Shown: positions 11,701 through 26,522 of the stretch, piece after piece
Position numbering within the stretch: the first letter of the stretch is position 1
Layout of the letters: the number at the start of each line of letters is the position of its first letter
DNA from: Bdellovibrionales bacterium
GTDB lineage: Bacteria; Bdellovibrionota; UBA1018
Direction of reading: 5' to 3'
Assembly: GCA_018266355.1 (NCBI GenBank)
Contig: JAFEAP010000030.1
Coordinates: 9,481 to 41,480 of the forward strand
DNA length: 32,000 nt
The notes under the pieces: model-generated
The model's input: the letters and a program-made list of their open reading frames with translations, nothing else
The model's database searches: none
What the model was told of the DNA's origin: nothing
Position numbers and translations under genes: made by a program

Positions 11701-12392
11701 TGCTTCATGCGGTAATGCGACCAGGCTTTTTTCTGGAGGAGCCGTGGGAGGGCGGCACCCTGGTAGCGCGGGAGCGCGAGTTCGTAGTTCTTGAGCGCCT
11801 CTTTATAGTCCGCGCGCAGGTAGGCGGATTCCGCGATCGCGCGGTAGGCTTCGCCGACGTAAGGCGATTCAGGAAATTTCTGGGTGAGTTCGCGGAAATA
11901 CTTCACCGAACTCTTCTCTTCCTCGAGCTCGTCGTAATAGACGCCGAGGAAGTAATAGATCTGGTCGAGCTTCGGGTGCTTGATTCCGAGTCGGAGCACC
12001 TCCTCGCATGCGCGGATTCCGAGCCGGAGGTACGGCTTCGAATTCGAGCGGTCGATGAATTTGTCGGCGACGCCGTTCGCGAGGCGGGTCTCGTGGACCT
12101 TCCCCTCGTTCAGGAATTCGCCGCGGTAGGCTTCCAGGTAGGTCTCGGCGAGCCGGACGTAAAGATCGGCCTTCCGGTTCGTCGGCAGCCGACGCCCGAG
12201 CGCCCGCTTCAACTCCGCGATCTCTTGGTTCCGAAGGTCGCGGATCTTGTTCTCGTCGGGCGTACGCACCGAAGCCATCTCGGACGCCGGATACGGCTCC
12301 GCCCGCGCCGCATGCGTCGAAACGACGGTCAGCGAGGCGGCGACGAGGAAAATCGAGAGCGAACGGCGGATCAGGTTCGAGGAATTCGTCAT
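8736..12392 (-). CDS. Giant (1218 aa) TPR-repeat periplasmic protein (GltD/AgmU- or GltE-like)
   Basis: Signal peptide plus many TPR-like helices (YLRADYKEALKNYELALPRYQ, YDKAVSTMKRAIAEG, RVDEALAYFKQAAG, NPKAAAALNNRGVLI, NFDSAEKTFAKATKA). Confidence 0.8.
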   Translation of the reverse strand: MTNSSNLIRRSLSIFLVAASLTVVSTHAARAEPYPASEMASVRTPDENKIRDLRNQEIAELKRALGRRLPTNRKADLYVRLAETYLEAYRGEFLNEGKVHETRLANGVADKFIDRSNSKPYLRLGIRACEEVLRLGIKHPKLDQIYYFLGVYYDELEEEKSSVKYFRELTQKFPESPYVGEAYRAIAESAYLRADYKEALKNYELALPRYQGAALPRLLQKKAWSHYRMKQYDKAVSTMKRAIAEGSKDEKFLSLRDESMRDMAIFLTESGRVDEALAYFKQAAGGKDFYAKTLERLGAQYERNAETAKAVQVYESLLKTNPNDEASFRVRVKLFDLDLRRSQYASALKRIQGIEIPKANTDDDTGIAATNLRALVRKTAVDAHEDYRKTQNKNSLAVAENFYTVYLNQFLAKQDEKKEIPEIQMYLAEVKRDQGKPADAAFLYKQVIRSKDERYAKQAAAFWMASLGESIAKKKDAAGTEGAKPLDEKLEMDFIEASDYVADNFGAKTEGLQARLNVIVALAGNPKRQDDAEGRIKKLIALAPDAPQTLTAARIWAQMYADRLPKKVEDIKGSSQADDFLKVAAEIRKTPGIILADQKLQKGTLAAFLDGEEARIKIGVIAGQEKSKDFASAAKGYEEFAKTEPKRELAEKSFESAVRNYVSAQDYDSATRTVAAWLGRYKDSKHAVDSLRDVATNAIIMGQFEKAGALFRILGRRGDPDSVEIAGRLYEGAGNLTEASTDFRYYLEAFKKAGNRGQIALSLAEWYDYSKNEPQAVKYLKLCFEEGNAASPECGARLADLYMRLETVPQADRTFRAVAAMGSASGRGRKGRTSGASSSPWIGYARYHLATTLERDTQFRKLSLPDDKLKRGLEERLAFLKKLNDSYQSVVAVAGPWAVAALDRLANWVMNFADEVDQIEPPKDAKPEAVAGFRKGLKSVSDPLRAKALETWRTAYQKAVELELLSPVLPSIADRLTDFGASLPNRAQGFRDKFRLSGQPADGGKEGRGNAFERIRQSLVDNAKNPTAWIDYGNLLWGDGKPLVAKIAYERALLLNPKAAAALNNRGVLIASGSGQEDWIRIAEANEYFKQAIAKDELFLAAKFNRGAVLNYYRIFTKAKPYWNQVAAVAPQPDVLDGIAISEQGQGNFDSAEKTFAKATKAGGDSDRPSVIYHQAGRISRTDPGKCLKLTNKLLDETSGFERQAVQHLGEICKSWKK

Positions 12393-13951
12393 TTACCGCA
12401 CTCCGATTCGAGACCGAAGACGTAGTCCCCGAGTTCGTCGTTCCAGAACTCCCCGTTGAAGGTCCAGAACATCTGGTTATCCTTCCGCGTCGGACGCACG
12501 ACGCCGCGCGAACGCTCGTCGTCTTCCGCCTTCGCGTGAGTCACCTTGCGGATCAGCTTGTCCTTCGCGCGACCGAGCATCTCGAGGCGGATATAGGAGA
12601 TCTTCTCGAAATCCGCGACGAGGACCGAGTGGTGGTCGATCATCGAGTTCTTCACGTACGCGCCGCCGACCTGGTGGATCGTCTTGCGGCGCCACTTGAG
12701 CACTTCGGTGAGGAAGGAAGAAAAGCCGCCGCCGACGTTCGTCCCCGTCATGCGGGCGAAGGCGGTGATCGCTCCCCGCTCCTTGTCGAGCGAGGCGTCC
12801 TGGGCGGCGAGGTCCGAGAAGTACGGGCCGCGCACGAACCGGTTCGCGAGCCGCTCTACGGGATCGGCGGTGTCGCGTTTATCCTTCAGCGTCCGCGCGC
12901 CGAGTTGGTAGAACGCTTCGAGGTTACCCGCGTTCGACTCGACGAACTTCTTCACTTCGCGGCCGATGTCGGTGTAGCGGGAATTGAAATCGTCGATCGC
13001 CTTCTGGGTGTCGTCGTAAAGGCAGAGCGCGAGATAGGTCTGCGCGCGGAGTACTTCGACTTCGCTGTTGAAGACGAAATCGAGGGCGGGCGCCTTGTAG
13101 GTCACGAGTTTCCCGAGCGTGCGGTTGAACTCGCGTTTCGCGAACGCGTTCCAGGCCTGCTCGAAGAGGATCTCGGGCCAAACGCGGCTCGCCTTCGGGA
13201 TCTTGTCGTAGGCCTTCTCGGCTTCGTCGAACTTCTCGCCCTGGTACCAGGCGCGGGCCTCGTCGGCCGAGCAGCGGGCCTCGAGATCCTTCGATTCGTT
13301 CACCTGGCTGCGGTAGCGCGGGCTCGCGGCGTCGGCTTCCGTCACGACGAGCGGCGAATACTTCTGGCAATCGCGGAAATCGTCGACGGCTTCTTCGACG
13401 CGGCCCTGGATCGTGAGCGCCGTGCCGCGAAGTTCGAGCGAGAACGGATAGAGGCGGCTCGACGCGCTCACCTTGTTCAGGTATTCGAGCGCGCGGTTCA
13501 TGTCGTCCTTCAGGATCGCTGCTTTCGCGAGCGAGAAAAGGTAGGCGCTGCGGTTTACGGCGTCGTAGTCCTCGTACTTCGTGTTCCGGATGAGGTAGTC
13601 GCGAAGGACGTCCGGGCCGACGCGCCCGAGGATCGCCTCGGTCTGGGTGAGCACTCGGCGGATCGCGGCGCGGTCACCGGACTGGAGCGTCTGGATGAAG
13701 AAATAAGTCGCCGAATTCCAGAGACCCGCGTGCGCGAGCGCGAGCGTGACGACGGCGCTCGCGTCCCCTTTCGCGGCCCCGTCTTGGGAGGCGGCGTAGG
13801 CGTAGCGTGCGGCGCTGAAATACTGGCCTTGGTTGTAGAACGTCTTCGCCTGCGTGAGCGCGTCGGCGGCGAACGTCGGCGTCGCCGCGATCGCGAGAAG
13901 GCCCGCGATAAAAGGGGCGAGGAGCGCGGTGAGCGGTCCGCGTTTCGTCAT
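12389..13951 (-). CDS. TPR-repeat periplasmic protein (about 520 aa; start corrected from the supplied 14251)
   Basis: Signal peptide MTKRGPLTALLAPFIAGLLAIAATPTFAADALTQAKTFYNQGQYFSAARYAYAA at the ATG ending at 13951; upstream part of the supplied 620-aa ORF is antisense-like Arg/His-rich sequence overlapping the beta-barrel gene. 4-nt ATGA-type overlaps on both sides. Confidence 0.8.
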   Translation of the reverse strand: MTKRGPLTALLAPFIAGLLAIAATPTFAADALTQAKTFYNQGQYFSAARYAYAASQDGAAKGDASAVVTLALAHAGLWNSATYFFIQTLQSGDRAAIRRVLTQTEAILGRVGPDVLRDYLIRNTKYEDYDAVNRSAYLFSLAKAAILKDDMNRALEYLNKVSASSRLYPFSLELRGTALTIQGRVEEAVDDFRDCQKYSPLVVTEADAASPRYRSQVNESKDLEARCSADEARAWYQGEKFDEAEKAYDKIPKASRVWPEILFEQAWNAFAKREFNRTLGKLVTYKAPALDFVFNSEVEVLRAQTYLALCLYDDTQKAIDDFNSRYTDIGREVKKFVESNAGNLEAFYQLGARTLKDKRDTADPVERLANRFVRGPYFSDLAAQDASLDKERGAITAFARMTGTNVGGGFSSFLTEVLKWRRKTIHQVGGAYVKNSMIDHHSVLVADFEKISYIRLEMLGRAKDKLIRKVTHAKAEDDERSRGVVRPTRKDNQMFWTFNGEFWNDELGDYVFGLESECGK

Positions 13952-14670
13952 AGCCGGAACCCCGCTCCGATCGTGAAGTCCGTGCTGTTGAAGAACGTCT
14001 CGTCGCCGGTCACCGCGCGCGCCGGAGCCTTGAACCAAGCGTTCGTGAAGTCGAGGCGCACGAGGAAATTCTCGGTGACGTGGAAGATTTGGCCCGTGCC
14101 GAGGTAGTACGCGGTCAAGCTCTTCGAAGTTTCGGCGAGTCCCGCGCTCGCGGAGCCCGGGATCATGTCGGCCTGCATCGTCCCGATGCCGCCCGAGAAG
14201 TACCAATCGAAATAAAGCACGGTGTTGAAGACGTTGATCTTCGCGTACCACGGCACCCAGTGAAGGAGCGCGCCGACCTGGCTCTTCACCTGGATCACGT
14301 CGGGGCGTACGGAAGTCGACGCAAGCGCCTTCGCGGTGTCGTTTTCCTTGTTCGAGAACATCGAGTAGAACATCTCGATGCCCCAGGATTCATTGAAGTA
14401 ATACGCGATCCGAGGATCGATCACGTAACTCTTCCGGTACGCGTTCGTGTTCGCGAAACCGAAACCGAGCGAGATCATCGGACGGTTCGCCTTCCGGTAT
14501 TTCCGGTTTTGGAGCACCGAAACCTTTTTGTCCGGATCGAGCCAGCTGAAGTTGTATTCGTTATCCGGATCCTCGGCCGCTTCACTCCATGAAGCAGCGA
14601 CGACGCTCAACCACAACGCCGCCATCAGGACCAAGAGGAGCTTTATCACCCAATTTCCATGGCGTTTCAT
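13948..14670 (-). CDS. Outer membrane beta-barrel domain protein (myxobacterial/Bdellovibrio-type)
   Basis: From MKRHGNWVIKLLLVLMAALWLSVVAASWSEAAEDPD (signal peptide) followed by alternating amphipathic strands and a terminal FTIGAGFRL barrel end. Confidence 0.75.
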   Translation of the reverse strand: MKRHGNWVIKLLLVLMAALWLSVVAASWSEAAEDPDNEYNFSWLDPDKKVSVLQNRKYRKANRPMISLGFGFANTNAYRKSYVIDPRIAYYFNESWGIEMFYSMFSNKENDTAKALASTSVRPDVIQVKSQVGALLHWVPWYAKINVFNTVLYFDWYFSGGIGTMQADMIPGSASAGLAETSKSLTAYYLGTGQIFHVTENFLVRLDFTNAWFKAPARAVTGDETFFNSTDFTIGAGFRL

Positions 14671-14775
14671 GATGTTATTAGAATAACCGCCACCCCGGCG
14701 ACGCACTAATTCTTTTTGTCGCTATCTGGCTTCGGCGAGAGTCGGCTCGGGAATATTTTCGTCAGGGTTTTGACG

Positions 14776-17730
14776 TCACTTCGCCGAAGCGACGAAGCGT
14801 TTTCCTTCCGCGCATCGCTCGAGGTGATCGCACACCTCGCAGAGCGAGTGGGGATGCGGCTCTCCGGGTTTTCCGCGAAGGATCGTCTCCGCGCGCGCGC
14901 GGAATTCGGCGAGGCGATTCGCCTCGAGCGGAACTTCGATCTCCGTCACCTGACCACCCGCGATATGGATCAAGAGCGCGCGAATCCGCCCGCGAGACTC
15001 CGGCACGAGCCCTTCGAGCGCCCAGGCGTAGAGATTCAGCTGGGTTCGGTAAGTTTCGAGGAGCTCCGCCTCGGACTTCTTCCGGGCGGTCACCTTGAAG
15101 TCGAGGATCGTGAAGGAGCCGTCGGGGTCCCGCACGAGCCGGTCGAGCGCGCCGATGAGCGTTGCCGTATTGCCCGCCGATGCGGGAGCCGCCGCCTGAG
15201 CGTCGCCCGACCGAGGAATCGGAATTTCGAAAGCGAGTTCCTTCCAAGCGACGCGCCCGTCGGTTCCCCGCATCCACGGCGACTCGTTCATCCAGGAGAT
15301 CACGGGACCCGCGCGAAAGACGGATTCGCCGAGGAGTTTCTCGAGCTCGACCAAACCGCCCGGCTCCTCGAGCTCGAGCGCGCGGTGGACGCGGGTCCCG
15401 ATCTCGTTCTGGGCGATCTTCGGCCTCTTCGACGGACGCTCCTCGCGCGCGGCCTCGTACGCCACGAACTCGCGCCACTCCTCTTCCTCGGTCGGCGCGA
15501 TCGGACGGATCACCGACCATTCGTACGCGCGCTCGCAACGCGAAAGAAGATTCCACTCCGAGACGGAATGCCGCGGACGGCGCGGTAAAAACGCCGGCGG
15601 CCCGCCGCGCGGATCCGGGCGCGGTTCGCTCGGCGCCGGACCGATCTCCGGCGCGCGCACGGGCGCGGACCGGCGCGGACGATCCTTCAGCGCCGGTTCG
15701 ATCCATCCCCTCCAAAAATCCACCGTCGTGAAGTCCGCGATTTTCTCGCGGTGTTTCGCGATCTCCTCGCGCTTTTTCTCGTCGTCGGTCGTCGGCAGCA
15801 CGAGGAGCAGGCGCTTCTTCGCGCGGGTGAGCGCGACGTAAAGGACGCGCTTCGATTCGGCGAGTTCTTTCTCGACTTCGAGTTTCTTCCACTCGCTTTC
15901 GACGGCGTCCTTCTTCAGACGGTCCCCGTTCTCGTCCTTTCCGGCGAGGTAAGCCCCGCGCTCGCGGTCCCAAAAGAAAAGCGGCGTCCGCGAGGCCCGT
16001 TTCGTCTTTTCGGGAAAATCGAGCAGGATCACGTGGGGAAACTCGAGTCCCTTCGATCCGTGGACGGTCATCACGCGAAGCTGGCCCGCGTTCCGCGGCG
16101 GCGGCACCGCACGTTCGCGCCGATCCTCGTCGCAGGCGGCGAAGATCCGCTCGGCCACGCGCGGGAAGTCGAGTCCCTCTTCGGTGAGCTCCTCCGCGCG
16201 GTGCCAGAGCGCGAGGACCGCGACGCCGAGGTCCTCCTCGACGAGCGGAAGCTCGAGGAGCGAGAGGAGCACCTCGCCCGGACGTACGCGCCCGGGATGG
16301 AGCTTGAGCGGGCGGAGCAACCGCGCCGCCGGATGATTCGAACGGAGGAACGCGTGAAGCATCCCCGGATCCGTCCGGCGCCACTCCTCGATCTCCGTCT
16401 CGGGAATCCCGATCCACGGCGCGCGCAGGAACGCGACGCCCATGATCTCGTTCGCCGGATTCGCCCACCACCGGAGCAGGCACGCGAGTTCGCGCGCGCG
16501 TGGGTCATTCCAAAGGAGTCCCCCGCTCTCGATCGCGAGCGGAACGCCCGCGGCGGTCAGCGCCTTCAGCCATTTCTCGTTCTTCCCGCGGATCGTCCGA
16601 AGGAGAAGCGCCATATCGGCGAGCGGGACACCGCGCGCGACTTCGTTTTGGATCAGCCGCGCGAGCTCTTCCGGAGAACGCACCTCGGCCGATTCGACGG
16701 GGGCAGTATCCGGGTCATCGACGAGTCCCGGCGTGAGCGCCCGGTAATCCATCCCGCTCGTCGCGAAAGCCGGCGCGCAAACCGCGTTCGAAAATTCGAG
16801 GATGCCCGGTACGCTGCGGAAATTCCTCGTGAGCGCGACTTGGACCGGCATGTGGGAGCAGAACTCCTCGAAGACCGAGACGTCGGCGTCCCGGAACCGG
16901 TAGATCGATTGTTTCGGATCCCCGACCACGCAGAGGTTCGCGAGCCCCGGACGCGCGAGGCGCGTGAGGATCCGCGCTTGGACGGGGTTCGTGTCCTGGA
17001 ATTCGTCGACCATAACGAGATCGAAACGTTTCCGGTAATCCGCGGCAACCGGATCGTGCTCGAGGGCGCGCGCGGCGCCGAGTTCGAGGTCATTGAAGTC
17101 GAGCGCTCCCCGCCGGCGCTTTAGCCGGTCGTATCGTTCGAGCGCGTACTCGGCGAGGAGGCGAAGCTCGGGGGCGTTCTCCATGCGGACGAGCACGCCG
17201 TTCGCCTGGAGATCCCTCACCCGCGCGAGGAGGGCGTAGAGTTCGTTCCGCGTTTCGCGTTCGGACAATCGCGCGAAGGCTTCGTCCACGTCGGGCGGCA
17301 GTTCCTCGAAGAAAAGGCCGTCGAGCGCTTGGGCCCAAAGCGACGCCCCTTCGGTCTCCGAGAGCATGATCTCGTCGCCGTCGAAACCGGCTTCGCGCGG
17401 GTATTCCCGGATGATCGCCGAGCAGAAGCCGTGGATCGTCGTCACGACGTGGCTTTGGAGCGGGCGGCCCTGGAGTTCGAGGGTGAGCCGAGTGAGTTTC
17501 GCGCGGAGATCGCTCGCCGATTTCTCGGTGAACGAGACGGCCGCGAAGCGGGCTTCGGGATTCCGGATCAAGAGCTCGCGGACTTTCCGCACGAGCGTGA
17601 AGGTTTTTCCCGAGCCCGCGCCCGCGAGCACGGCGATCCCCTGCCCCCAGGACTCGACGACTTCCCTCTGCTCGGCCGTGAGATCGCCGGCGGTTTTATC
17701 GTTCGGGTCCTCGCGACGTTCTTCAGTCAT
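14776..17730 (-). CDS. addA: UvrD/RecB-like helicase-nuclease (AddA-like) with PD-(D/E)XK domain
   Basis: 984-aa ORF; Walker A LAGAGSGKT, VMVDEFQDTNPVQ, VVGDPKQSIYRFRDAD, MTVHGSKGLEFPHVILLDF, LYVALTRAKKRL, C-terminal nuclease ALDRLVRDPDGSFTILDFKV and CEVCDHLERC. Confidence 0.85.
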   Translation of the reverse strand: MTEERREDPNDKTAGDLTAEQREVVESWGQGIAVLAGAGSGKTFTLVRKVRELLIRNPEARFAAVSFTEKSASDLRAKLTRLTLELQGRPLQSHVVTTIHGFCSAIIREYPREAGFDGDEIMLSETEGASLWAQALDGLFFEELPPDVDEAFARLSERETRNELYALLARVRDLQANGVLVRMENAPELRLLAEYALERYDRLKRRRGALDFNDLELGAARALEHDPVAADYRKRFDLVMVDEFQDTNPVQARILTRLARPGLANLCVVGDPKQSIYRFRDADVSVFEEFCSHMPVQVALTRNFRSVPGILEFSNAVCAPAFATSGMDYRALTPGLVDDPDTAPVESAEVRSPEELARLIQNEVARGVPLADMALLLRTIRGKNEKWLKALTAAGVPLAIESGGLLWNDPRARELACLLRWWANPANEIMGVAFLRAPWIGIPETEIEEWRRTDPGMLHAFLRSNHPAARLLRPLKLHPGRVRPGEVLLSLLELPLVEEDLGVAVLALWHRAEELTEEGLDFPRVAERIFAACDEDRRERAVPPPRNAGQLRVMTVHGSKGLEFPHVILLDFPEKTKRASRTPLFFWDRERGAYLAGKDENGDRLKKDAVESEWKKLEVEKELAESKRVLYVALTRAKKRLLLVLPTTDDEKKREEIAKHREKIADFTTVDFWRGWIEPALKDRPRRSAPVRAPEIGPAPSEPRPDPRGGPPAFLPRRPRHSVSEWNLLSRCERAYEWSVIRPIAPTEEEEWREFVAYEAAREERPSKRPKIAQNEIGTRVHRALELEEPGGLVELEKLLGESVFRAGPVISWMNESPWMRGTDGRVAWKELAFEIPIPRSGDAQAAAPASAGNTATLIGALDRLVRDPDGSFTILDFKVTARKKSEAELLETYRTQLNLYAWALEGLVPESRGRIRALLIHIAGGQVTEIEVPLEANRLAEFRARAETILRGKPGEPHPHSLCEVCDHLERCAEGKRFVASAK

Positions 17731-20596
17731 CGCCGCCCCCGCTTCCGTCGCCTTCTTCCTCGTCTCGATCGTCGAGGAACCGCCGCTGACCGCAGGCGTC
17801 CCGCACCAAACACGAATCGCACTCCGCGTACGGCCCGCCCGTTTTCGCCGGTTTCGGAGTCACGTGCACTTCGCCCGAGACGTACCGCCTCGTATGGGCT
17901 TCGATTTCTTCGGCGAGCTTTCCCCAAACCTCTTCCGGCGGCCGATCGACGAGCGAGCTGCTTCGCGCGGTCGTCTTCGTGAGCGTGCCCGGACCTTTCC
18001 CGTTCCACGGCGTGAAGAAAATCCCGCTTCCGCGGGAGCCTTTGCGCGTGAGTTCGATGAATTGGATCCCGAGCGGCGCCTTTTCGAAATGGCGCGCGGC
18101 CGCGAGCGCGTAGATCGGCATCTGCAACCGATACCCGAGGTCGATCATCTGCGGCGCCTTCGGCGAAACCGAAGACGTCTTGTAATCCATGAGGAAGATT
18201 CCGTCGGGATGTTCGTCGATCCGGTCCGGAATGCCCTTGATCGAGACCTGGTCCCTGCCGGCGGGCGAACCCGCGTCGCCGGAAGGAGCCGGACCTAAAT
18301 CGACGACGTACCGAAGCTCCGGTGATTCGAGCGCGAGCACTTTCGTCCGGGCGCGTTCGACGTAAGCGGCTTCCTGAACCATGAACGCTTCGAGGATCGG
18401 ACGTAACTTCCGTTTCGTGAAAGCGGCGAGGCGCTCGCTCTGGAAAAGTCCTTTCGGTCGACGATCCGCCCAGGCCGCGTCGAGCGCCTCATCGGCGGTG
18501 AGCGAGAATCGCCCGGCGTCGTCGCGCGCCTCGATCAAACGGCGGACCGCCTCGTGCAGGAGAGTGCCCCGCGCATCCGGACGCATGTCGAGGTCGGCCG
18601 GCTTGGCCTCCCCGAGCCGCCATCGCCGGAGGAGCAGGCCTTGCATTTCGCAGCGGCTGAAATATTCGAGGTCCGAGGCGCTGAGCTCCGGACGCTCGCC
18701 CGGCCGACCGAGCGGCGAAAGCCGGATCTCCCGCGGCGGTGCCGACGTCGGGTGCAGATAACTCTTCCGCCACCGCGGATGGGAATCCTTTTCGACCGGC
18801 GCGAGCGGTGCCCCGTCCGCGCCGCGGACGCCGAGCTCCTGGATGAGCGGCTCGATCGACTCGCGTTCGCGCCCGTCCCAGTCGTAGAGCGCGTCGAGGA
18901 AAAGTATTTCGCGCGCGTGCGCGAGCCAGAACTTCAAGACCCGGCGCCGGAATTCCGCCTCGTGAATGCCGGAGCGGACTTGGAAATGCCCGGAGAGGAC
19001 TTCGCGTTCGCGATCCGAATAGAAATAATCTCCCGGATTATCGCCCGTCGTATACCTCGGCGGAAGCGCGAGGCACCAGAGCTTCTCCGGATAGGACAGC
19101 GGGGTCTGGCCGAGGCGGAAGATTTCGACGCCGTTCTCGTATTGGATCTTCTCGAAAGGAGGCGTCGCATCCGCGAGCCGGAGCCGAAGCCGCTCGAGCC
19201 AATACAGGATCGGCGCTTTCCGGCGCGCTTCGCCGATCACCGCGAGATCTCCAGCGAACCGCTCCCAAACGGCGGTGAAGAACTCGTGAACCCATGCCTC
19301 GAAATCCGGATTCCTCCGGATCCAAGCGAGGTGGAACCCCGCGACCTCGTCCACGCGGATCCGCGGCGAGAACGCCTCGTTCAAGAGTTCGAGCATCGCG
19401 CGGATCCGTTCGAGCCGGTCGCCCGAGTAGGCGCCGAGCCCGGTTCGGATCCCGCGATCGAGGATCTCCTGGTGCATTTTCCGTTTTTCGGCGAATTCCG
19501 TTTCGGGATTCCCGTCGAGGCGCACCCAGCTCGAATGGAGGAATGAAATCACTTCTTCGTGACGGAATCGGCGCGCGACGACGTCGAGCGGGAGGAGCGC
19601 GACCTTCACGGACTCTTCCCACTTCAACCGCGTCGGATCGCGCGGATCCTTCAGCACGAGTCCCCGTTCGTCGAGCGCGCGCTTCAGGCTGCGGCGTACG
19701 GCCGGCAGATCCGGAAGCAACACGCCGTTCCTTCCGAGCGTGCCGGCGCGGTATTCCTCGAGGAGTCCGTCCGCGAGCCGGTCGCACGTGTCGTCGACCG
19801 TGTGCCACGCCTCCCACGTCGCCGAGAACTCCTCGTCGGGATACGCTCGTTCCATCGTCGCGAACTCGGTCCCGAGCAAGTCGGCGACGAAAATCCGCTC
19901 GACTTCCGTCCGTCTTCCGAGCGCTTCCCAGAGCGCCTCGCCCCGGCTTTCGCCCGTTTTCGCGGAAAGCACCACGATCCGCTCCGGCAGTTCGAGCGGG
20001 ATTTCGGCGGTGCCGAGCACGCCGACGGCGCCGAGGATCAGGCGCGGGAGGTCCCACGCGCGGTTCTCGTCGAGCCACGTCTCATAGGCTTCGATCACCG
20101 CCCGGATCTCGCCGCGCAGGCGTCCGCCTCCGAAGAGTTCCCGGAGTTTTTCTTCCTGGGCCTCGCGTTCCGCGGCGGAGGCGTAGGTCATGCGCGCGGA
20201 TTGGATGGTTCGGTCTAGCTTCTTGTAGAAGTCGCGCTGCCGCTTCAATCGGCGGAGTTCGGGTGCGCGCTCGGGCCCGTTCCTTTCCCATTCGCGCTCG
20301 GAAAGGATCCGTCGCAGGATTTCCTGGCGGGATGGCGCGCCGAGGACGCGGTCGCGTTCGACGAGCGGCCCGAGGACGTGGCGGCAGAGCGAGGCGACGT
20401 CCTGGATCGCGGCCGAGGTGAAACCGCGGCCGCGGGCGAGGTACCGTTCCTTCACTTCCTCACGCGAGATGCCGCTTTCGACGACGATCCACGCGCGCGG
20501 ATCGAGTCCGCCGACGGGAACGGCGTCCAACCGGGCCTCAAGCCGGGGGCTGAATCGCACGCATGAACTCCTGGTAGGCGTTTTCGAAGATCGCAA
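17723..20596 (-). CDS. addB: AddB-like PD-(D/E)XK nuclease subunit
   Basis: 957-aa ORF adjacent to and overlapping addA; C-terminal nuclease SDLEYFSRCEMQGLLLRRWRLG...GIPDRIDEHPDGIFLMDYKTSS...CDSCLVRDACG. The true start may be a TTG at 20530..20528, just after the purQ-like stop and preceded by GAGG. Confidence 0.72.
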   Translation of the reverse strand: MRSSKTPTRSSCVRFSPRLEARLDAVPVGGLDPRAWIVVESGISREEVKERYLARGRGFTSAAIQDVASLCRHVLGPLVERDRVLGAPSRQEILRRILSEREWERNGPERAPELRRLKRQRDFYKKLDRTIQSARMTYASAAEREAQEEKLRELFGGGRLRGEIRAVIEAYETWLDENRAWDLPRLILGAVGVLGTAEIPLELPERIVVLSAKTGESRGEALWEALGRRTEVERIFVADLLGTEFATMERAYPDEEFSATWEAWHTVDDTCDRLADGLLEEYRAGTLGRNGVLLPDLPAVRRSLKRALDERGLVLKDPRDPTRLKWEESVKVALLPLDVVARRFRHEEVISFLHSSWVRLDGNPETEFAEKRKMHQEILDRGIRTGLGAYSGDRLERIRAMLELLNEAFSPRIRVDEVAGFHLAWIRRNPDFEAWVHEFFTAVWERFAGDLAVIGEARRKAPILYWLERLRLRLADATPPFEKIQYENGVEIFRLGQTPLSYPEKLWCLALPPRYTTGDNPGDYFYSDREREVLSGHFQVRSGIHEAEFRRRVLKFWLAHAREILFLDALYDWDGRERESIEPLIQELGVRGADGAPLAPVEKDSHPRWRKSYLHPTSAPPREIRLSPLGRPGERPELSASDLEYFSRCEMQGLLLRRWRLGEAKPADLDMRPDARGTLLHEAVRRLIEARDDAGRFSLTADEALDAAWADRRPKGLFQSERLAAFTKRKLRPILEAFMVQEAAYVERARTKVLALESPELRYVVDLGPAPSGDAGSPAGRDQVSIKGIPDRIDEHPDGIFLMDYKTSSVSPKAPQMIDLGYRLQMPIYALAAARHFEKAPLGIQFIELTRKGSRGSGIFFTPWNGKGPGTLTKTTARSSSLVDRPPEEVWGKLAEEIEAHTRRYVSGEVHVTPKPAKTGGPYAECDSCLVRDACGQRRFLDDRDEEEGDGSGGGDD

Positions 20597-21341
20597 GGCC
20601 CTGTCCGGGCGCGTTCGCCCGTTGGGGCGCCGTCGTCCATTCGGGATGCGCCGTCCACCGGATGAAACTCTCCGGATGCGGCATGATGCCGAGGATCCGT
20701 CCGCTCAGGTCGCAAAGCCCGGCGATGTTCTCGTCGCTGCCGATCGGGTTCCCCTCGTATTTCAGGCAGTGGAGTCCCCGCCGCTGGAGCTTCACGAGGG
20801 TTTCCGTTTTGCGGTTCGGATGGATCACGATACGCGCCTCGGGATGCCGGAGCGGGAGATCGACGACGCCGAGGCCCCGAAGCCAGGTGCACGTCATGCC
20901 GATCGGCGCGACCTTCACCCATCCCTGGAGCGAACGCCCGCCCGCCCCGGCCGGCGAAGCCGTCCCGCCGTTCGAGGTCACCGAGATCTCGCGTCCGAAA
21001 ACGCCGAGCCGGATGAGCGTGTGGAACCCGCTGCCGATGCCGATCACCATCCCGCCGCGCGCGGCGTACCCGGTGAGCGTCCATCCGAGCAGGTGTTGGA
21101 TCTTGAGCGCGAGAAGCTTTCCGCTTCCGAGTTCGTCGGCGGTCGAAGCGCCGCCCGGGATAGCGAGCACCGCGTACTCCTCGGAGAGCCGTTCTTCGCG
21201 ATACCCTTCGGCGACGAGGTCGGCGAGGTTCCGAAGGTGCACTTCGAAGCCCGCGGTCGCGAAGGCTTGGGCCGTTTCGTTTTCGCTCAGGATACCGGGT
21301 CCGCGGAGCACGAGGACGCGCGGCCGTTTCACGTCGCTCAT
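20538..21341 (-). CDS. PurQ-like class I glutamine amidotransferase with nucleophile Cys replaced (supplied start 21629 corrected)
   Basis: MSDVKRPRVLVLRGPGILSENETAQAF...LAIPGGASTADELGSGK...GGMVIGIGSGFHTLIRLGVFG...GRILGIMPHPESF; PurQ-like scaffold, but canonical GxCNGFQ reads GIGSGFH. Confidence 0.8.
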   Translation of the reverse strand: MSDVKRPRVLVLRGPGILSENETAQAFATAGFEVHLRNLADLVAEGYREERLSEEYAVLAIPGGASTADELGSGKLLALKIQHLLGWTLTGYAARGGMVIGIGSGFHTLIRLGVFGREISVTSNGGTASPAGAGGRSLQGWVKVAPIGMTCTWLRGLGVVDLPLRHPEARIVIHPNRKTETLVKLQRRGLHCLKYEGNPIGSDENIAGLCDLSGRILGIMPHPESFIRWTAHPEWTTAPQRANAPGQGLAIFENAYQEFMRAIQPPA

Positions 21342-24300
21342 TCCCAGTAACCCTCCCGCTTCCACGCCTGGCGGAGCACCTTCGTCTCGATCACGAGCGA
21401 AGGCGTTTCGCCGCGACGGATCTGCACGACGCCGGTACCGGTGACCGTTCCGAGCCGAATGAACGGGATTTCGTTCGCGGCGAATTCGGTCTCGACGAGC
21501 GCGGCGTCGATTTCGCCGACGGAAACCACTAGCCCGTGGAAGCCCTCGCCGAAGAGGAATTCCCATTCCGCCGTGCGCGGCAGCCCCTCGGGGTATTGGA
21601 GCGCGACGCCCATGCCGCGGGCGATGCACCCTTCGGCGATGGCCGTGACGAGTCCGCCGTCGGAGACGTCGTGGATCGAGCGCAGCTTCTTCTGTTCCTT
21701 ACCGATCGCTCCGCCGAGCCACGCGTAAAGACGCCGGGCGGTGTCCCACTCCGGCGTCGGCGAGGTCGCGTCGGGCGGAACCGCGCCGTAAACTTCGGCG
21801 ACGAGCGAACCGGTCAAGCCGAATCGCGCGGGACCGAGAAGGTAGACGGCGTCGCCGGGGGTCTTGAAGTCGGCGCTGCGGATGCCCGCGACTTTCGTCG
21901 TGCGCGCGATCGATTGGACGACGAAGTGGAGCTTCGAATTCTGGCCGACGATCGTCTGCTGCGCGCCGTGAACGAAGGGGGTCTGGAGCTCGATCGCCGC
22001 ACGGGTCGCGCCCATGCACGCGCGGACGAGTCCGCCGCGCTGGTTCGCGTCCTGCAAATCCTTCGCGGGACAGGAGAATTGGTAGGTCAGCGCGAAAAGG
22101 AAGTCTTCCTTTCCGTAGTCTGCGCCGCACGCGATCGCGTTCCGCACGGCTTCGTCCGCGGCGAGCGCGCCCATCAGATAAGGATCGACGGCCGCCGCGC
22201 GCGGCGCGAGTCCCGTCGCGACGATGAGGCCGGCGTTCGACTGGGGTTTGAGCTTGAGCGCTCCGCCGTCGTTCGGACCGGAGTGACTCACCTCGGGCGA
22301 GACGGAAGCGACATGGAGGGGCTTGAGCGCGCTCGTGCCCTGGACCTCGTGATCGATCTGGCGAATCAGCCACTCGCGCGAACACACGTTCGGATGGCTC
22401 AGGATCCGGAGCAGCGTTTCGACGCCTTCCTTCGCGGGATCCCCCCACTCGATCGCGCGCGGGGCGCCCGGCTTCGGAGCGGGTTTCGCGCGCGTGATTT
22501 CCTCGTGCGCGCGCGGCTGGCTGCCGCGCAAGAACTTCGTATCGACGTCGACGATCCATTCTTCGCCCGCCGTCTCCGGCGCGCGCATTTGGATCCGTCC
22601 GCTCGCTCGAACCGCTCCGATCTCGGCGCCGACCATCCCCCGGCGGGACGCGAGCCCGACGACCGCTTCGACCCGCTCCTCGGGCACGATCGCGACGATC
22701 CGTTCGGCGGTTTCCGAACCGAGGATTTCCATCGGGCGCAGGCCCGAGATCTTCGTCGGCACGCGGTCGAGGTCGATCTCGACGCCGCCGAATTCGCGGG
22801 CGATTCGGGCGGCGACGCTGGCGATTCCCCCTTCGCCGCACGGGAAGAAGACCCGGTTCCAACCGAGGTCGCGCACTTCGGCGACGAGCGCCGAGAGCGA
22901 ATGCAAGAGCGTCGTATCGCAAATCTGGACGTTCGGGGTGCCGAGCATCCCCTCTTTTCCGGTCGCGGATCCGAGGATCACGAGGCGATCGCCCGCCGAG
23001 GCTTCGCGCGTTTCCGAGGGGATCCCGCCCGCGATCCGCGGAACGAGCGAGAGCGCCGAAAAGTGCGCGACCGGAGTCACGCCTTCCTTCGCGTCGAGGT
23101 AGAGCGCGCCGCCGATCGTGGGCACGCCGAGCTGGGCGCCCGCTTTCGCGATCCCGGTCTTCACGCCGTCGAGGACGCGGCGGGGATGGAGGTGGTCCTG
23201 CCCCTGGGGGACGGGGGCGTGCAGGTCGGCGGAAAAAATCACGTCGGTCGCGAGGATCGGCTTCGCGCCCCGGCCGGCGCAGATCGCGCGCAGGTAGGTT
23301 TCCGCATAGCCCATGAGCGAACCGTAGGTCGCGTCGGAGGCTACCGTCCGCGACTCGATCTCGGTTTCGACGGAGAGCAGGTCCTCCTCGTCGTACTGGA
23401 GGAGGCTCGCGCCGTTCTCGAACGCCGAGACCACCCAAGCGCGCGGGACTTCCCGCGTCGATTCTCGGAAGGTCCCCTCGATGAGGCCGTTCAGTTTCTC
23501 GGGCAGCGGCGGACCGAGCGCTTCGTCGACCTCGCGCGCGAATTCGTCCGGGACGATTTCGGCGCGCATCAGCCGCCGGAACGGAACCGAACGCCAAACC
23601 TTAGAAATCAACTCGAGCTCGACGTCCGTGACGTCGCGTTCGAAGCCGGCGCGAATCGCCTCGACCTCGTTCTCGGCGAAGGAGAATCCCTTGCGTTTGC
23701 AGAACTGCGCGACTTCCGCGTTCGTAAGGCTTCCGACCGCGAGCCGTTCGATCGGCGCGTGAAACCGGGCGGGAGCGGACTTCGGCATCTCGCGTTTCAC
23801 GCGTTCGGGATGGAAGCGCTCGGTGTGCGAGATCTCTTTTTCGGTGAGCAGGGTCCAGCTTTCGAGGAGTTCGTTCGAGAAATACTCGCGCGCGATCCGC
23901 GCGAGGTGCTCCTCGGTGAGTTGCGGGCCTTCGAGAAGGAGCATCGACCCGGTCGCGACGCGCGCTTCGGGTCCGAGCTTGCGCTTGAGCACCGCTTCGA
24001 AGGATTCGACGAGCGTGCGCGAAGCGTGGTCCGTCACGCCGAGACGGAAGCGCTTCTCGAGGGCGAAGAATTTCCCCGGCCGGTTCGGCGCCGTTTCGAG
24101 CAGATCCTCGACGTTCCCGCGCTTGCCCGCGGCGGACGGGATGAGGTTTCCGGTGAAAAGCCAGTGCAGGACGGAATCCCACAGGGTTTCCTGCGACGCG
24201 AAGATGAGCTCTTCGCGCGTAAGCGGCAGATCGAGCCAATACACGGTCATCGACCGCACCCACCGTACGAGTTTCCGCAGGTGCGGATCGGTCATCTCCA

Positions 24301-24373
24301 TCCGACGGAGAAGCGGCCCGGCCAAAGGGTCGGCATACTCGGGTTTCAGGGCGACTTCGATGCGCGCGAACAT
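21338..24373 (-). CDS. PurL-like protein (divergent phosphoribosylformylglycinamidine synthase large-subunit paralog)
   Basis: 1011-aa ORF; PurS-like N-terminal segments (LGVTDHASRTLVESFEAVL), TDVELELISKVW, VETEIESR...GRGAKPI, GVPTIGG, VILGSATGKEGMLGT, GGVEIDLDRVPTKISGLRPMEILGSETAERI, SIHDVSDGGLVTAIAEGC. Confidence 0.8.
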   Translation of the reverse strand: MFARIEVALKPEYADPLAGPLLRRMEMTDPHLRKLVRWVRSMTVYWLDLPLTREELIFASQETLWDSVLHWLFTGNLIPSAAGKRGNVEDLLETAPNRPGKFFALEKRFRLGVTDHASRTLVESFEAVLKRKLGPEARVATGSMLLLEGPQLTEEHLARIAREYFSNELLESWTLLTEKEISHTERFHPERVKREMPKSAPARFHAPIERLAVGSLTNAEVAQFCKRKGFSFAENEVEAIRAGFERDVTDVELELISKVWRSVPFRRLMRAEIVPDEFAREVDEALGPPLPEKLNGLIEGTFRESTREVPRAWVVSAFENGASLLQYDEEDLLSVETEIESRTVASDATYGSLMGYAETYLRAICAGRGAKPILATDVIFSADLHAPVPQGQDHLHPRRVLDGVKTGIAKAGAQLGVPTIGGALYLDAKEGVTPVAHFSALSLVPRIAGGIPSETREASAGDRLVILGSATGKEGMLGTPNVQICDTTLLHSLSALVAEVRDLGWNRVFFPCGEGGIASVAARIAREFGGVEIDLDRVPTKISGLRPMEILGSETAERIVAIVPEERVEAVVGLASRRGMVGAEIGAVRASGRIQMRAPETAGEEWIVDVDTKFLRGSQPRAHEEITRAKPAPKPGAPRAIEWGDPAKEGVETLLRILSHPNVCSREWLIRQIDHEVQGTSALKPLHVASVSPEVSHSGPNDGGALKLKPQSNAGLIVATGLAPRAAAVDPYLMGALAADEAVRNAIACGADYGKEDFLFALTYQFSCPAKDLQDANQRGGLVRACMGATRAAIELQTPFVHGAQQTIVGQNSKLHFVVQSIARTTKVAGIRSADFKTPGDAVYLLGPARFGLTGSLVAEVYGAVPPDATSPTPEWDTARRLYAWLGGAIGKEQKKLRSIHDVSDGGLVTAIAEGCIARGMGVALQYPEGLPRTAEWEFLFGEGFHGLVVSVGEIDAALVETEFAANEIPFIRLGTVTGTGVVQIRRGETPSLVIETKVLRQAWKREGYWE

Positions 24374-24443
24374 CAGAGAAGCCTAACAGAGTCGTTAACT
24401 TGACTCGGAGCGATATCCTTTGGGGAACTAACCGTCCGGCGAC

Positions 24444-24473
24444 TTGCAATCTCCGGAATTTGCCCCCTACACT
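24444..24473 (+). promoter_or_regulatory. Candidate promoter TTGCAA-18 bp-TACACT, 6 nt upstream of ATG 24480
   Basis: TTGCAA 24444-24449, TACACT 24468-24473, no Shine-Dalgarno before the ATG. Confidence 0.4.
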
Positions 24474-24479
24474 GTCTGC

Positions 24480-24707
24480 ATGAGTCAGAAAGACAGCAGT
24501 CCCGTGACGGGTGTGATCGAGGAAAATCTCGTGATCCTGGATTTCGGTAAGTACGAAGGCAAGTCGGTCGAAGAAATCGCCCGCCTCGATCCGGAGTTCT
24601 ACGACAAGCTCGCTTCCGAAAAGGAGAACGGAGTCTTCGCGATCCGCCGTCAGCGCGACAAGACCTTCCGCCTTTACGTGAATCCGCTCTCGAACATGGA
24701 TCACTAG
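24480..24707 (+). CDS. Small (75 aa) protein, similar in look to DUF3820 / exodeoxyribonuclease X C-terminal-like proteins
   Basis: MSQKDSSPVTGVIEENLVILDFGKYEGKSVEEIARLDPEFYDKLASEKENGVFAIRRQRDKTFRLYVNPLSNMDH; FGKYEGKSVEEI...DPEFYDKL motif. Confidence 0.65.
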   Translation: MSQKDSSPVTGVIEENLVILDFGKYEGKSVEEIARLDPEFYDKLASEKENGVFAIRRQRDKTFRLYVNPLSNMDH

Positions 24708-24734
24708 ACGTCGGATCCGACCGCGAAAAAGTTC

Positions 24735-24767
24735 GAGGCTCGACCGGGGTTTCCCCGATCGAGCCTC
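24735..24767. terminator. Strong hairpin terminator between convergent genes (possibly bidirectional)
   Basis: GAGGCTCGA (24735-24743) / TCGAGCCTC (24759-24767), inner CGGGG-TTT-CCCCG stem; a T5 run on the minus strand at 24730..24726. Confidence 0.6.
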
Positions 24768-24792
24768 TCTCGTTTCAGATTCTCGATTCCGA

Positions 24793-26433
24793 CTAGAGGA
24801 TCAGCGAAGCCATCGGCATACCGACGAGCCATCCGCCCCAAGACTGGGAAAGGACGCGCGCGATTTGCGGGATGCGCTTCTGGGCGTCCTTTTCGGAGAG
24901 CCCTTTGAGTTCAGGGAAAAGGGTTTCGTACTTCTTCACGTCCCACTTGATCGCCCGTCCGGCGGTGAAATCGTGGTACGGCTTCGGCTTGCTCCAGGTT
25001 TTCTCGCCTTTCGCGTTCAGGACGGATTTCCCGTCCTTGTCCACGATCTCGACGGTCATCGTCCGGTTATAGGGAGCGGTATCGAAACCGTCCTTCAGCG
25101 GGAAGAGGTCGACGAGCGACTTCGGAGCGGAATGGTAGAAAGACGCGAGATCGATCTTCGCGCTCTCGTTCGAAACGACGGCGCTCGTGACCCCGTCGAC
25201 CTTGCTTCCGTCCTTCGCCGTATTCGAGTAAGTCTTGTCGACCGTCGTGACGTACGAAAGGTTATGCAGCCCCGTCGTCATCATGCGGGCGATCGGAGTC
25301 GTGCCGCGCGGATCGAGGAGGTTTCCGAACGTGCTCTCGTCGTTTTGGCGGCGGCGAAGCTCGGCCCAGCTATAAGAGGCTTCGGCGACCGCCCATTTCA
25401 GGTCGGCGTACGCGGAGTTCATCCAGCCTTGGCCGCCTTCGCGAAGATCGAAGAGCCCGGTCCGATTGTTCTGCGCGCGCAGGACGTCGAAACGCACGCG
25501 ATCGGTCGTGACTTCCGGGTTGTAGCGGAACGCGCTTCCGTAACCGAACTTCTTCGAAAGGGTGTCGATCGCGCTGAAGAGGCCGTTCAAGTTATAGGCG
25601 TTCAAGCTGCAAAGCGAGCTGAGCGCGTAGTGCACGTTCGAAAGCGCCGCGTGGCGCTCGGCTTCGCCCATCCGGATGAACCGGTCTTGGTCGCTGAAGA
25701 AGTCGGCGTCGGCGTAAAAGATCTTCGCGTCGAAATAGACGGTCTTGTTCGCGAAATTCAGCGCGTGGAGGCGATCGCGCGCCTTCCCGAGTTTCGGACG
25801 GACTTCGTTGTTCAAGAAGTCGTGGAATTCGAGCTCGTTCGTGATCGGTTTACCGGTCCCGGTGTTCGGGACGGTGAGGTACTTCATCCCCGCTTTCCAC
25901 TGGTCGGTCGGGAGGTAGGTCATCACGCCCGCTCCGACGGCGCGCAGGGTGGCCACGGCGCCGAGGCGCGTGATCGGCGTCGGCTCGATCCAGTCGATCG
26001 CGCGATTGAAGAAACCGTTGAACGCGATGAGCGGCGCCATTTGGGCGGCCGCGAACTTCGCGTCGTCGCCGAGCGTGTTGTAAAAGGCGTCGTTATCGAG
26101 ATCACGGAGAATCGAGTGGAGATCTTCCGGCGTCTTCGCGGCGAACACGCGTTTGCGAAGAGCGATGAAGGAATCCGAGAAGTTCGTGGTCTCGTTCCGC
26201 GACTCGGTGGTAGCGACTTTGCGCCCTCCGCGCTCCTCGGCGGCGGCGATCGCGGCCTGGTACTCTTCCGCGCTCGGCGGCGGCATCACTTCGGGGGCCG
26301 GGCCCGCCGGAGTGCTCTTCACCGTGGTTTTCGCGACGGTTTTCGCGACGGTTTTCGCGGTGGCGGCTCCGGCCGAAACGGCGAAACCGAGGAACAAAAA
26401 GGTCGCGAGCGAACGAGACGTGAATTTTTTCAT
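24793..26433 (-). CDS. Secreted protein of unknown function (about 546 aa)
   Basis: Signal peptide MKKFTSRSLATFLFLGFAVSAGAATAKT, KTVAKTVAKTT repeat, long globular region without recognised motif; SD-like GGAGAGG upstream of the ATG at 26433. Confidence 0.7.
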   Translation of the reverse strand: MKKFTSRSLATFLFLGFAVSAGAATAKTVAKTVAKTTVKSTPAGPAPEVMPPPSAEEYQAAIAAAEERGGRKVATTESRNETTNFSDSFIALRKRVFAAKTPEDLHSILRDLDNDAFYNTLGDDAKFAAAQMAPLIAFNGFFNRAIDWIEPTPITRLGAVATLRAVGAGVMTYLPTDQWKAGMKYLTVPNTGTGKPITNELEFHDFLNNEVRPKLGKARDRLHALNFANKTVYFDAKIFYADADFFSDQDRFIRMGEAERHAALSNVHYALSSLCSLNAYNLNGLFSAIDTLSKKFGYGSAFRYNPEVTTDRVRFDVLRAQNNRTGLFDLREGGQGWMNSAYADLKWAVAEASYSWAELRRRQNDESTFGNLLDPRGTTPIARMMTTGLHNLSYVTTVDKTYSNTAKDGSKVDGVTSAVVSNESAKIDLASFYHSAPKSLVDLFPLKDGFDTAPYNRTMTVEIVDKDGKSVLNAKGEKTWSKPKPYHDFTAGRAIKWDVKKYETLFPELKGLSEKDAQKRIPQIARVLSQSWGGWLVGMPMASLIL

Positions 26434-26522
26434 CGAGAAAGCCCTCTCCATTGGCCTGCATAAATTTTGGAGGCCGGAGGAATAGTTTTCAACTTAAAAC
26501 AAAACCGAAGAGAATGGTCCCC

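Follow-up and report, generated by a model that had tools for sequence, protein, structure and literature searches.

Why would a bacterium keep both subunits of a metabolic enzyme whose active sites have decayed, at a locus from which the other genes of the pathway are missing? The question is raised by two overlapping genes, here called purSL' and purQ', in a stretch of 32,000 nucleotides from a Bdellovibrionales bacterium of the predatory-type lineage Bdellovibrionota (positions 9,481 to 41,480 of contig JAFEAP010000030.1, assembly GCA_018266355.1); this stretch is referred to as the window, and its own numbering is used below. The genes encode homologues of phosphoribosylformylglycinamidine (FGAM) synthase, the PurL/PurS/PurQ enzyme of step 4 of purine synthesis. 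A preliminary description, made from the letters and open reading frames (ORFs) alone, had treated the pair as degenerate paralogues. The analysis presented here favours, at a probability of about 0.7, a degenerated FGAM synthase ortholog that persists as a pseudoenzyme heterodimer with a putative non-catalytic role.

PurSL' is 100% identical to an NCBI entry from a metagenome-assembled genome (MAG), 'hypothetical protein JST04_18180 [Bdellovibrionales bacterium]', and its homology to PurL is well above chance; the NCBIfam PurL models match it at E values of 4e-67 and 1e-64, and the Pfam families AIRS and AIRS_C are present. Among the 120 matches listed, about 77 are full-length relatives (34-88% identity, about 1000-1100 aa) from Bdellovibrionota/Oligoflexia-type MAGs, and the more remote ones are PurS-PurL fusions from other phyla. 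The full-length protein aligns with such fusions (P0079-P0085), its N domain is 27% identical (E of 5e-12) to the PurS-containing N-terminus of P0079, which carries the Pfam domain PurS, and PurQ' is encoded separately downstream, all as expected of a PurS-PurL fusion. Between the two PurS-like halves of the N domain lies an insertion of about 25 aa (LFTGNLIPSAAGKxGxxxDLLExAPNRPGxF), which is the densest patch of conservation in the whole of PurSL' and is missing from the PurS-PurL fusions of other phyla. An AlphaFold2 model (50-sequence input; pLDDT 89.4, pTM 0.90) is matched by Foldseek to Salmonella PurL (1t3t/4lgy; TMq 0.79, E of about 1e-53, about 1080 columns, 17-18% identity), with a superposition that spans the N domain, linker and synthetase domain, and to the small-PurL fold 3viu (TMt 0.88). 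The model thus predicts a PurS-like N domain, a linker and an A1-B1-A2-B2 pseudo-dimer of the PurM superfamily, with the glutaminase as a separate subunit. Nearly all of purSL' is also spanned by an antisense ORF of 955 aa (21536-24403, plus strand); at 66% G+C, ORF length alone is uninformative.

The peptides quoted for PurSL' in the preliminary description were all found at, or a few bases from, the places given for them; WRSVPFRR is present, slightly off the interval of about 23581-23604 assigned to it, and VETEIESRTVASDATYG agrees with the interval of about 23320-23370 (Table 1). The description had further held that FGAM-synthase motifs are missing from PurSL', and this is borne out by comparison with E. 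coli PurL, 44 canonical Bdellovibrionota PurSL and 35 small PurL. A MAFFT alignment of the 120 listed matches and E. coli PurL divides the Bdellovibrionota family in two: a canonical group that has, without exception, TWSEHCKHKIF, KVETHNSPSALDPYGG..GVNRD, TDNGAGGL, SESQERM, DNFCWPDP and SGKDSMKND, and a degenerate group, including the window protein, whose sublineages each replace these motifs differently. In E. coli/Salmonella numbering, H216, H296, N297 and T310, invariant in the 44 canonical Bdellovibrionota proteins and the 35 small PurL, are V263, E340, S341 and M354 in PurSL'. The Asp of GVNRD/DX4GAXP has become R (GVNRD to TYLRA) and that of DNGAGG has become P (TDNGAGG to FPCGEGG), two residues that, as in the PurM superfamily generally, are presumably Mg-ATP ligands; DNFCW is replaced by YQFSC and GKDSM by GAQQT. 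Neither the active-site His, N297 and T310 of a PurL (EC 6.3.5.3) nor the DX4GAXP Asp, the DxGAGG Asp, DNFCW and GKDS are therefore found in PurSL', which does keep a C-loop-like GSATGKEG segment and the GxGAxP and HPRR elements. H296 and T310 form the gate at the synthetase site (PMC7124931). The profile and structure comparisons that had been proposed as a check find the PurL fold kept, and the sequence alignment finds the catalytic residues replaced, with V263 and E340 aligned to the catalytic His positions, and the substitutions indicate that the site for formylglycinamide ribonucleotide (FGAR) and ATP has been lost.

Profile scores were considered as proof of degeneracy and rejected as such. 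PurSL' reaches 227 bits with NF002290 (cutoff 648) and 219 bits with TIGR01736 (cutoff 525.75), about half the bits of the canonical PurSL of locus L004, and PurQ' reaches 86.6 bits with the NCBIfam PurQ model (cutoff 298) against 131.5 for the canonical PurQ of L004, or about two thirds; however, the canonical Bdellovibrionota proteins also fall below the cutoffs (449 and 452 bits for the L004 PurSL), which therefore have no discriminating power in this phylum. That the canonical proteins encoded at L004 10001-13869 do not reach the PurL and PurQ equivalog cutoffs explains the inconsistent public names in this family, which include 'AIR synthase-related protein', 'hypothetical protein' and 'PurSL'.

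PurQ' is closer to its canonical Bdellovibrionota counterparts (55-57% identity) and retains 94 of 121 canonical-invariant residues, with the losses concentrated in the glutaminase site. It belongs to the GATase_5 family of class I (triad) amidotransferases and keeps the triad His and Glu (PHPE), but not the nucleophile and oxyanion elements. The absence of the nucleophile Cys had been noticed before, and indeed GIGSGFH stands where canonical relatives have GICNGFQ; Gly takes the place of this Cys in 10/10 deep-degenerate PurQ', and 33/33 canonical PurQ have it (G(I/V)CNGFQ). The oxyanion strand differs as well, as does the N18/C19 gate region. By sequence comparison, then, PurQ' has lost its glutaminase nucleophile, oxyanion strand and ammonia-gate residues. 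The Ser beside the lost Cys was considered as a substitute nucleophile and rejected, as the clade has S, A or N there and the position is not that of the elbow. A role for PurQ' as a glutamine sensor, binding without hydrolysis, is likewise unsupported, since the changes extend to the oxyanion strand, the Gln of CNGFQ and the gate residues N18/C19.

The setting of the pair points to its origin. At canonical loci (L004, L005, L007) the gene order is dapF, an exoX-like gene on the opposite strand, purF, purC, purD, purN, purSL, purQ, purH, purM, addB and addA, with overlapping gene ends. The window and loci L002, L003 and L008 have the exoX-like gene on the opposite strand, where visible, followed by purSL', purQ', addB and addA and then by outer membrane protein (OMP) and tetratricopeptide repeat (TPR) genes. 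Besides the window, four degenerate loci were sampled independently: L002 and L003 (contigs of 2.45 Mb and 1.19 Mb, respectively), L008 and that of P0074. Most of them have the OMP and TPR genes, and addB adjoins purSL'-purQ' at every degenerate locus that extends far enough. Six further pur genes accompany the pair at canonical loci; neither in the 32-kb window nor flanking any deep-degenerate locus was a pur gene found besides purSL' and purQ'. Family-specific patterns, run against the GTDB species representatives, matched at least 80 loci, mostly in incomplete MAGs, and the flanks of 45 were surveyed by tblastn with the L004 gene set while seven PurSL motifs were scored. Where at least 4.5 kb was visible upstream, purF, purC, purD and purN were all present at 23/23 loci with every motif, and 0-1 of them at 10/10 loci with motif loss; downstream, purH and/or purM were present at 21/21 canonical loci, and neither at 10/11 degenerate loci. 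Motif loss therefore tracks, without exception, the loss of flanking pur genes across the 45 loci, which are phylogenetically related, so that these counts overstate the number of independent events. Since the ancestral slot between the exoX-like gene and addB-addA is occupied by purSL' and the six other pur genes are gone, purSL' is best read as a degenerated positional ortholog that arose in situ, with those six genes deleted around the pair. The term 'paralog' of the preliminary description is not supported: in nine degenerate-type genomes, no second Bdellovibrionota-type PurSL was found among the matches listed, which give a single match each and reach down to PurSL of other phyla at 26% identity.

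Loci at which the process has gone less far are also known. In neighbour-joining (NJ) trees, the only kind that was made, 99.5% of bootstraps recover the deep degenerate clade as monophyletic and, once locus-derived sequences are included, it is nested inside the canonical diversity, where it adjoins partly degenerate lineages with 81.5% support, a placement open to long-branch attraction. Locus L049 (purSL-purQ-purH-addB) has SEHY, TNNGAGG and VSSFCW, and L023 (purSL-purQ-addB) has SEYY, AHDSPSA and GKES, both with the PurQ Cys kept. L028 and L029 (dapF-purC-purSL-purQ...addBA) show the reverse, with most PurSL motifs kept and PurQ carrying GIGNGFQ and MPRPE, that is, with Cys and His lost; in their sister L033 the PurSL motifs are lost. 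At all of these intermediates the purSL and purQ ORFs are full-length. Because the intermediates differ in what they have lost, catalytic erosion was repeated, and differently ordered, after decay of the operon had begun. In some degenerate lineages a purC-like ORF lies directly upstream of purSL' (L036 3884-5269, L029 8808-9989, L033 at about 3242). That of L036 has 461 aa, 36% identity to canonical PurC and no Pfam match, with GSVKD changed to ADLHE and VDAIGPDELR to ISMPGTEELE, and at the P0074 locus a 462-aa gene without a Pfam match overlaps the start of purSL'; a third, purC-like pseudo-pur protein may thus exist.

Despite the loss of their active sites, both genes are under strong purifying selection. 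Measured on one pair, the window and L010 (88% amino acid identity, dS of about 0.8), dN/dS is 0.095 for purSL' as a whole (0.044 in the N domain, 0.139 in aa 201-640, 0.077 in A2 and 0.073 in B2) and 0.080 for purQ'. purSL' and purQ' are functional genes, not remnants, and the view of the preliminary description that both subunits are catalytically degenerate and yet maintained as intact ORFs, coupled by an ATGA overlap (GGTTACTGGGAATGAGCGAC, GYWE and stop / MSD), is upheld. Given the lost catalytic residues together with this selection, the non-canonical function that it suspected must be assumed. Where the constraint lies was mapped on 16 degenerate representatives, which keep 67-93% of the canonical-invariant residues in aa 1-200, 0-32% in aa 201-640, 47-69% in aa 641-760, 27-35% in aa 761-840 and 80-100% in aa 841-1011 (B2). 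The degeneration described earlier is accordingly uneven, and does not extend to the N domain, B2 or the ligands of the auxiliary ADP site. In ordinary PurL the least conserved part is the N domain (PMC3815217), which serves as an adaptor that links glutaminase and synthetase (PMC7124931); in the PurSL' family it is, on the contrary, the most conserved.

The auxiliary site itself can be followed residue by residue. R666, D674, D702, E741, N745 and D902 of PurSL' align to K649, D657, D679, E718, N722 and D884 of the E. coli/Salmonella enzyme, with D702 in GPNDGG, E741 and N745 in DEAVRN and D902 in HDVSDGGL. Four of these six positions do not vary among the 16 degenerate representatives; at that of K649 either Arg or Lys is found, and at that of D657 there are two exceptions. 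K649, E718, N722 and D884 are reportedly Mg/ADP ligands in the 1T3T structure. GKDSM was entertained as the motif holding D884 and proved to be the wrong one, as D884 maps to the Asp of HDVSDGGL, and E718 and N722 to DEAVRN. Because the counterparts of D884, E718 and N722 are all conserved, the auxiliary ADP site appears to be retained in PurSL' rather than lost. In known enzymes this site is housed in A2/B2 (domain 2), where Asp679 touches ADP (PMC3815217), and for human FGAM synthase (FGAMS) the ADP, bound with three Mg2+, is considered a structural element acquired as the protein folds (PMC13013826).

The course of events that best accommodates these data begins with an operon ancestral to the phylum, purF-purC-purD-purN-purSL-purQ-purH-purM, running directly into addB-addA. 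In the lineage of the window the six other pur genes were deleted at the locus and the active sites of PurSL' and PurQ' lost; the two proteins would still fold and assemble as a putative ADP-containing heterodimer; the kept auxiliary site, adaptor N domain and PurQ scaffold fit a pair that folds and assembles as before. This heterodimer would produce no FGAM and would serve a scaffolding, binding or regulatory role, which presumably predates the time when catalysis became dispensable and would be exerted through the conserved surface of the N domain, B2 and PurQ'. Several points weigh against this account. Complex formation and ADP binding are predictions from conserved residues. The clade evolves fast, with identities of AddA, AddB, DapF and PurQ' to L004 about 20% below those of canonical genomes, so that part of the divergence is lineage-wide; because the similarity of PurSL' to L004 is about 45% lower, and so exceeds this drop, an excess, localised loss of constraint in PurSL' nevertheless sits atop the fast lineage. 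Amino acids 201-640 are still constrained in the window's subclade (0.139, with conserved VWRxVPFRRL and ExEIES), with which a remodelled ligand pocket in A1/B1 would be compatible. The genomes, most of them incomplete MAGs, may hold further pur genes, or a small PurL/PurS of another type, outside these loci, and the scan that found single PurSL used family-specific patterns that are blind to an unrelated small PurL. The link to AddAB comes from gene order, which canonical genomes share and which may be inherited.

With co-transcription assumed, AddAB is the sole partner candidate that the context suggests. A stronger proposal is that PurSL'-PurQ' is a dedicated accessory or regulatory factor of AddAB, or a nucleotide-state sensor that, through its ADP site, gates DNA-end processing, its earlier non-metabolic job having been done through the N-domain loop. 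Were it true, the survival of just these two of the eight genes at each decay of the operon would be accounted for; we think it improbable.

That the pair has become a different enzyme is also unlikely. A remodelled A1/B1 pocket, the His-Glu of PurQ' or both would then catalyse a reaction on, or bind, another nucleotide or amide substrate, and it speaks for such a change that the ex-catalytic half evolves under purifying selection in the window's subclade (the value of 0.139 given above), that VWRxVPFRRL, ExEIES(R/K)xVAxD and PCGEGG are conserved in that subclade, and that PHPE of PurQ' and GxGAxP and HPRR of PurSL' are kept. However, the replacements of H216, H296, DNGAGG and GKDSM differ by sublineage, which points to relaxed constraint and not to a shared new site, the Asp ligands for Mg-ATP that the active half of the PurM superfamily should have are gone, and the PurQ His is lost too in L028 and L029.

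Quite unlikely is the proposal that the pair is a dead duplicate that modulates an active purSL-purQ encoded elsewhere, much as the gammaherpesvirus vGAT engages the cellular FGAM synthase (PFAS). One NJ tree, with the deep degenerate clade and the canonical clade as sisters, would fit an old duplication, and conservation of the interface parts (N domain, B2 and the PurQ' scaffold) would suit a docking protein. Yet the ancestral slot is occupied by the degenerate gene itself, the neighbouring pur genes have been deleted and not duplicated, the clade nests in canonical diversity beside partly degenerate lineages once locus-derived sequences are added, the nine degenerate-type assemblies show the single matches described above, and the partly degenerate intermediates indicate erosion in situ. 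The vGAT precedent put forward in the preliminary description is an unlikely model for the same pair, because no active partner enzyme for it to engage was found by the family-specific scan.

It is highly improbable that the pair is still an FGAM synthase, very divergent and working with other residues or with free ammonia. The fold, the GSATGKEG segment, HPRR and the auxiliary site are retained, and PurSL' is apparently the sole PurL homologue detected in degenerate-type genomes (among the matches listed and by the family-specific scan); against this, H216, H296, N297, T310 and the Asp residues of DX4GAXP and DNGAGG are replaced, PurQ' is without its nucleophile, oxyanion strand and gate residues, and all six neighbouring pathway genes are deleted. 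Finally, it is barely credible that the genes are non-functional remnants, open by chance at 66% G+C or translated for the sake of addBA expression downstream, because, although long spurious ORFs do occur at high G+C (such as the 955-aa antisense ORF) and the overlap with addB, presumed co-transcription and lack of a strong terminator between the genes would suit a translational need, dN/dS is 0.08-0.10 at a dS of about 0.8 in both genes, which already contradicts it, more than 30 protein clusters hold full-length orthologues, at identities from 88% down to about 35%, 94 of the 121 invariant PurQ residues are kept, the AlphaFold2 model of PurSL' is confident, and a need for translation alone would not conserve amino acid sequence.

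Table 1. Features of the purSL'-purQ' locus (nucleotide positions refer to the window, amino acid positions to the protein concerned)
Feature	Position (nt)	Strand	Position (aa)	Remarks
purSL'	21338..24373	-		1011-aa PurS-PurL fusion homologue, ATG start; catalytically degenerate; positional ortholog of Bdellovibrionota purSL
N-terminal PurS-like adaptor domain	23774..24373	-	1-200	Contains the phylum-specific insertion
N-domain insertion LFTGNLIPSAAGK..APNRPGKF	24068-24160	-	72-102	Near-invariant in canonical and degenerate clades
Linker and ex-catalytic half A1/B1	22454..23773	-	201-640	
TDVELELISKVW			249-260	Peptide of the preliminary description
WRSVPFRR	23573-23596	-	260-267	Peptide of the preliminary description
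VETEIESRTVASDATYG	23321-23371	-	335-351	Peptide of the preliminary description
GRGAKP			367-372	Peptide of the preliminary description
GVPTIGG			416-422	Peptide of the preliminary description
GSATGKEGM			468-476	Peptide of the preliminary description
FFPCGEGGI	22823-22849	-	509-517	Peptide of the preliminary description
VEIDLDRVP			531-539	Peptide of the preliminary description
GSETAER	22700-22720	-	552-558	Peptide of the preliminary description
A2/B2 half	21341..22453	-	641-1011	Auxiliary ADP-site ligands kept
TYQFSC	22070-22087	-		Replaces DNFCW
HGAQQTIVGQN	21938-21970	-	802-812	Replaces GKDSM; peptide of the preliminary description
HDVSDGGL			901-908	Peptide of the preliminary description
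ATGA stop/start overlap	21338..21341	-		Couples purSL' to purQ'; same overlap in L010
purQ'	20538..21341	-		267-aa pseudo-glutaminase; Pfam GATase_5 PF13507, 131.8 bits, aa 6-257
GGASTADE	21132-21155	-		PurQ' motif; canonical GGFSFGDD
GIGSGFH	21021-21041	-		PurQ' motif
PHPE	20670-20681	-	221-224	PurQ' motif
addB-like PD-(D/E)XK nuclease subunit	17723..20596	-		Pfam PDDEXK_1; immediately downstream, overlaps purQ' end; conserved transcription unit
addA-like UvrD-family helicase-nuclease	14776..17730	-		Pfam UvrD-helicase, UvrD_C, PDDEXK_1; 8-nt overlap with addB end
Small ExoX-like_C protein, 87 aa	24444..24707	+		Pfam PF20600; divergently oriented, upstream boundary marker of canonical and degenerate operons

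The ExoX-like gene lies upstream likewise at L002, L004, L005, L007 and L009, and the window's AddA scores 234 bits with NCBIfam addA_Gpos, below the cutoff. A promoter scan gave no sigma-70-like site at 14000-25000. The sole strong hairpin (24735-24767; 15-bp stem with 11 G-C pairs) is found upstream of the unit, between the convergent genes at 24793-26451 (minus strand) and 24444-24707 (plus strand), and probably terminates transcription in both directions, marking where the purSL' unit ends upstream. At canonical loci the purine operon runs into addB-addA (L004 15485-19316, L005 15508-19182, L007 18251-22013), with an overlap of about 20 nt between the end of purM and the start of addB at L004, and the genes for de novo purine synthesis and AddAB appear to share a transcript throughout the phylum. 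In the window (8736-14706, minus strand) and at L002, L003 and L008, addA is followed downstream by an OMP beta-barrel gene and two TPR genes, of which one has about 1200 aa; these genes were not seen at the canonical loci examined. A part in anti-phage defence was considered and rejected: PADLOC gave no match for PurSL', PurQ' or AddB, and for AddA only generic UvrD (GajB) similarity. Some members of the family come from contigs labelled 'Lysobacteraceae', 'Cryobacterium sp.' or 'Micrarchaeota archaeon' (L053, P0014, L055 and L061); L053 (JAGTJX010000003.1, 982 kb) has a full Bdellovibrionota-type purF..purM-addB locus, P0014 falls in the degenerate clade, and the PurSL-PurQ pair of L055 and L061 is more distant and is not accompanied by that operon. 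These contigs are probably mis-binned or mislabelled.

Among known systems, the canonical Bdellovibrionota PurSL-PurQ (P0024, P0054, P0069; L004, L005, L007) is the closest, sharing with the window pair the LFTGNLIPSAAGK..PNRPG insertion, the linker, the A1-B1-A2-B2 order, the C-terminal KEGYWE, a separate PurQ with a 4-nt overlap and the slot upstream of addB-addA (35-42% identity in PurSL, 55-57% in PurQ); it keeps all catalytic motifs amid purF, C, D, N, H and M, whereas the window pair has lost both motifs and neighbours. The large PurL of Salmonella and E. coli (1T3T), with human FGAMS (9N9W), gives the best structural match and has conserved counterparts of the auxiliary ADP site; unlike it, the window glutaminase is a separate polypeptide, H216, H296, N297 and T310 are replaced and identity is 17-18%. 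The PurS2-smPurL-PurQ complex of Bacillus subtilis and Thermotoga maritima (3D54) also has a separate glutaminase, a PurS homologous to the N domain and the small-PurL fold, but in the window pair PurS is fused to PurL and both active sites are dead. Passages of PMC13013826 that cite Hoskins 2004 describe the assembly of the B. subtilis complex as metabolite-mediated, which cannot be assumed for the window pair because its glutamine site is eroded. The gammaherpesvirus vFGARAT/vGAT proteins (PMC7605207; TIGR01739) resemble it in kind, being likewise homologues of FGAM synthase that have no catalytic residues and are retained for a role other than catalysis; they are, however, viral tegument proteins, single-chain derivatives of large PurL that act with the host's active enzyme, whereas the window pair is bacterial, chromosomal and two-subunit, a degeneration in situ of the organism's own enzyme with no active counterpart detected. 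TIGR01739 matches PurSL' at 62.8 bits (cutoff 716) and matches the canonical L004 protein too, which makes this a generic PurL similarity. In literature searches nothing was found on bacterial PurL/PurQ pseudoenzymes or on loss of the purine pathway in Bdellovibrionota.

FGAM synthase is regarded as purely metabolic, and the only dead homologues known are those of herpesviruses. The pair described here is natural evidence for a second, non-catalytic function of the PurS/PurL/PurQ assembly, at least in Bdellovibrionota, and its kept parts show where to look for that function, namely the adaptor domain with its phylum-specific loop, B2, the structural ADP site and the PurQ scaffold. The partly degenerate loci provide graded intermediates for the origin of a pseudoenzyme. 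Where such genes are annotated automatically as 'phosphoribosylformylglycinamidine synthase', purine prototrophy will be over-predicted for the genomes concerned; the lineage is probably auxotrophic for purines, which bears on its cultivation and on predatory or host-dependent lifestyles.

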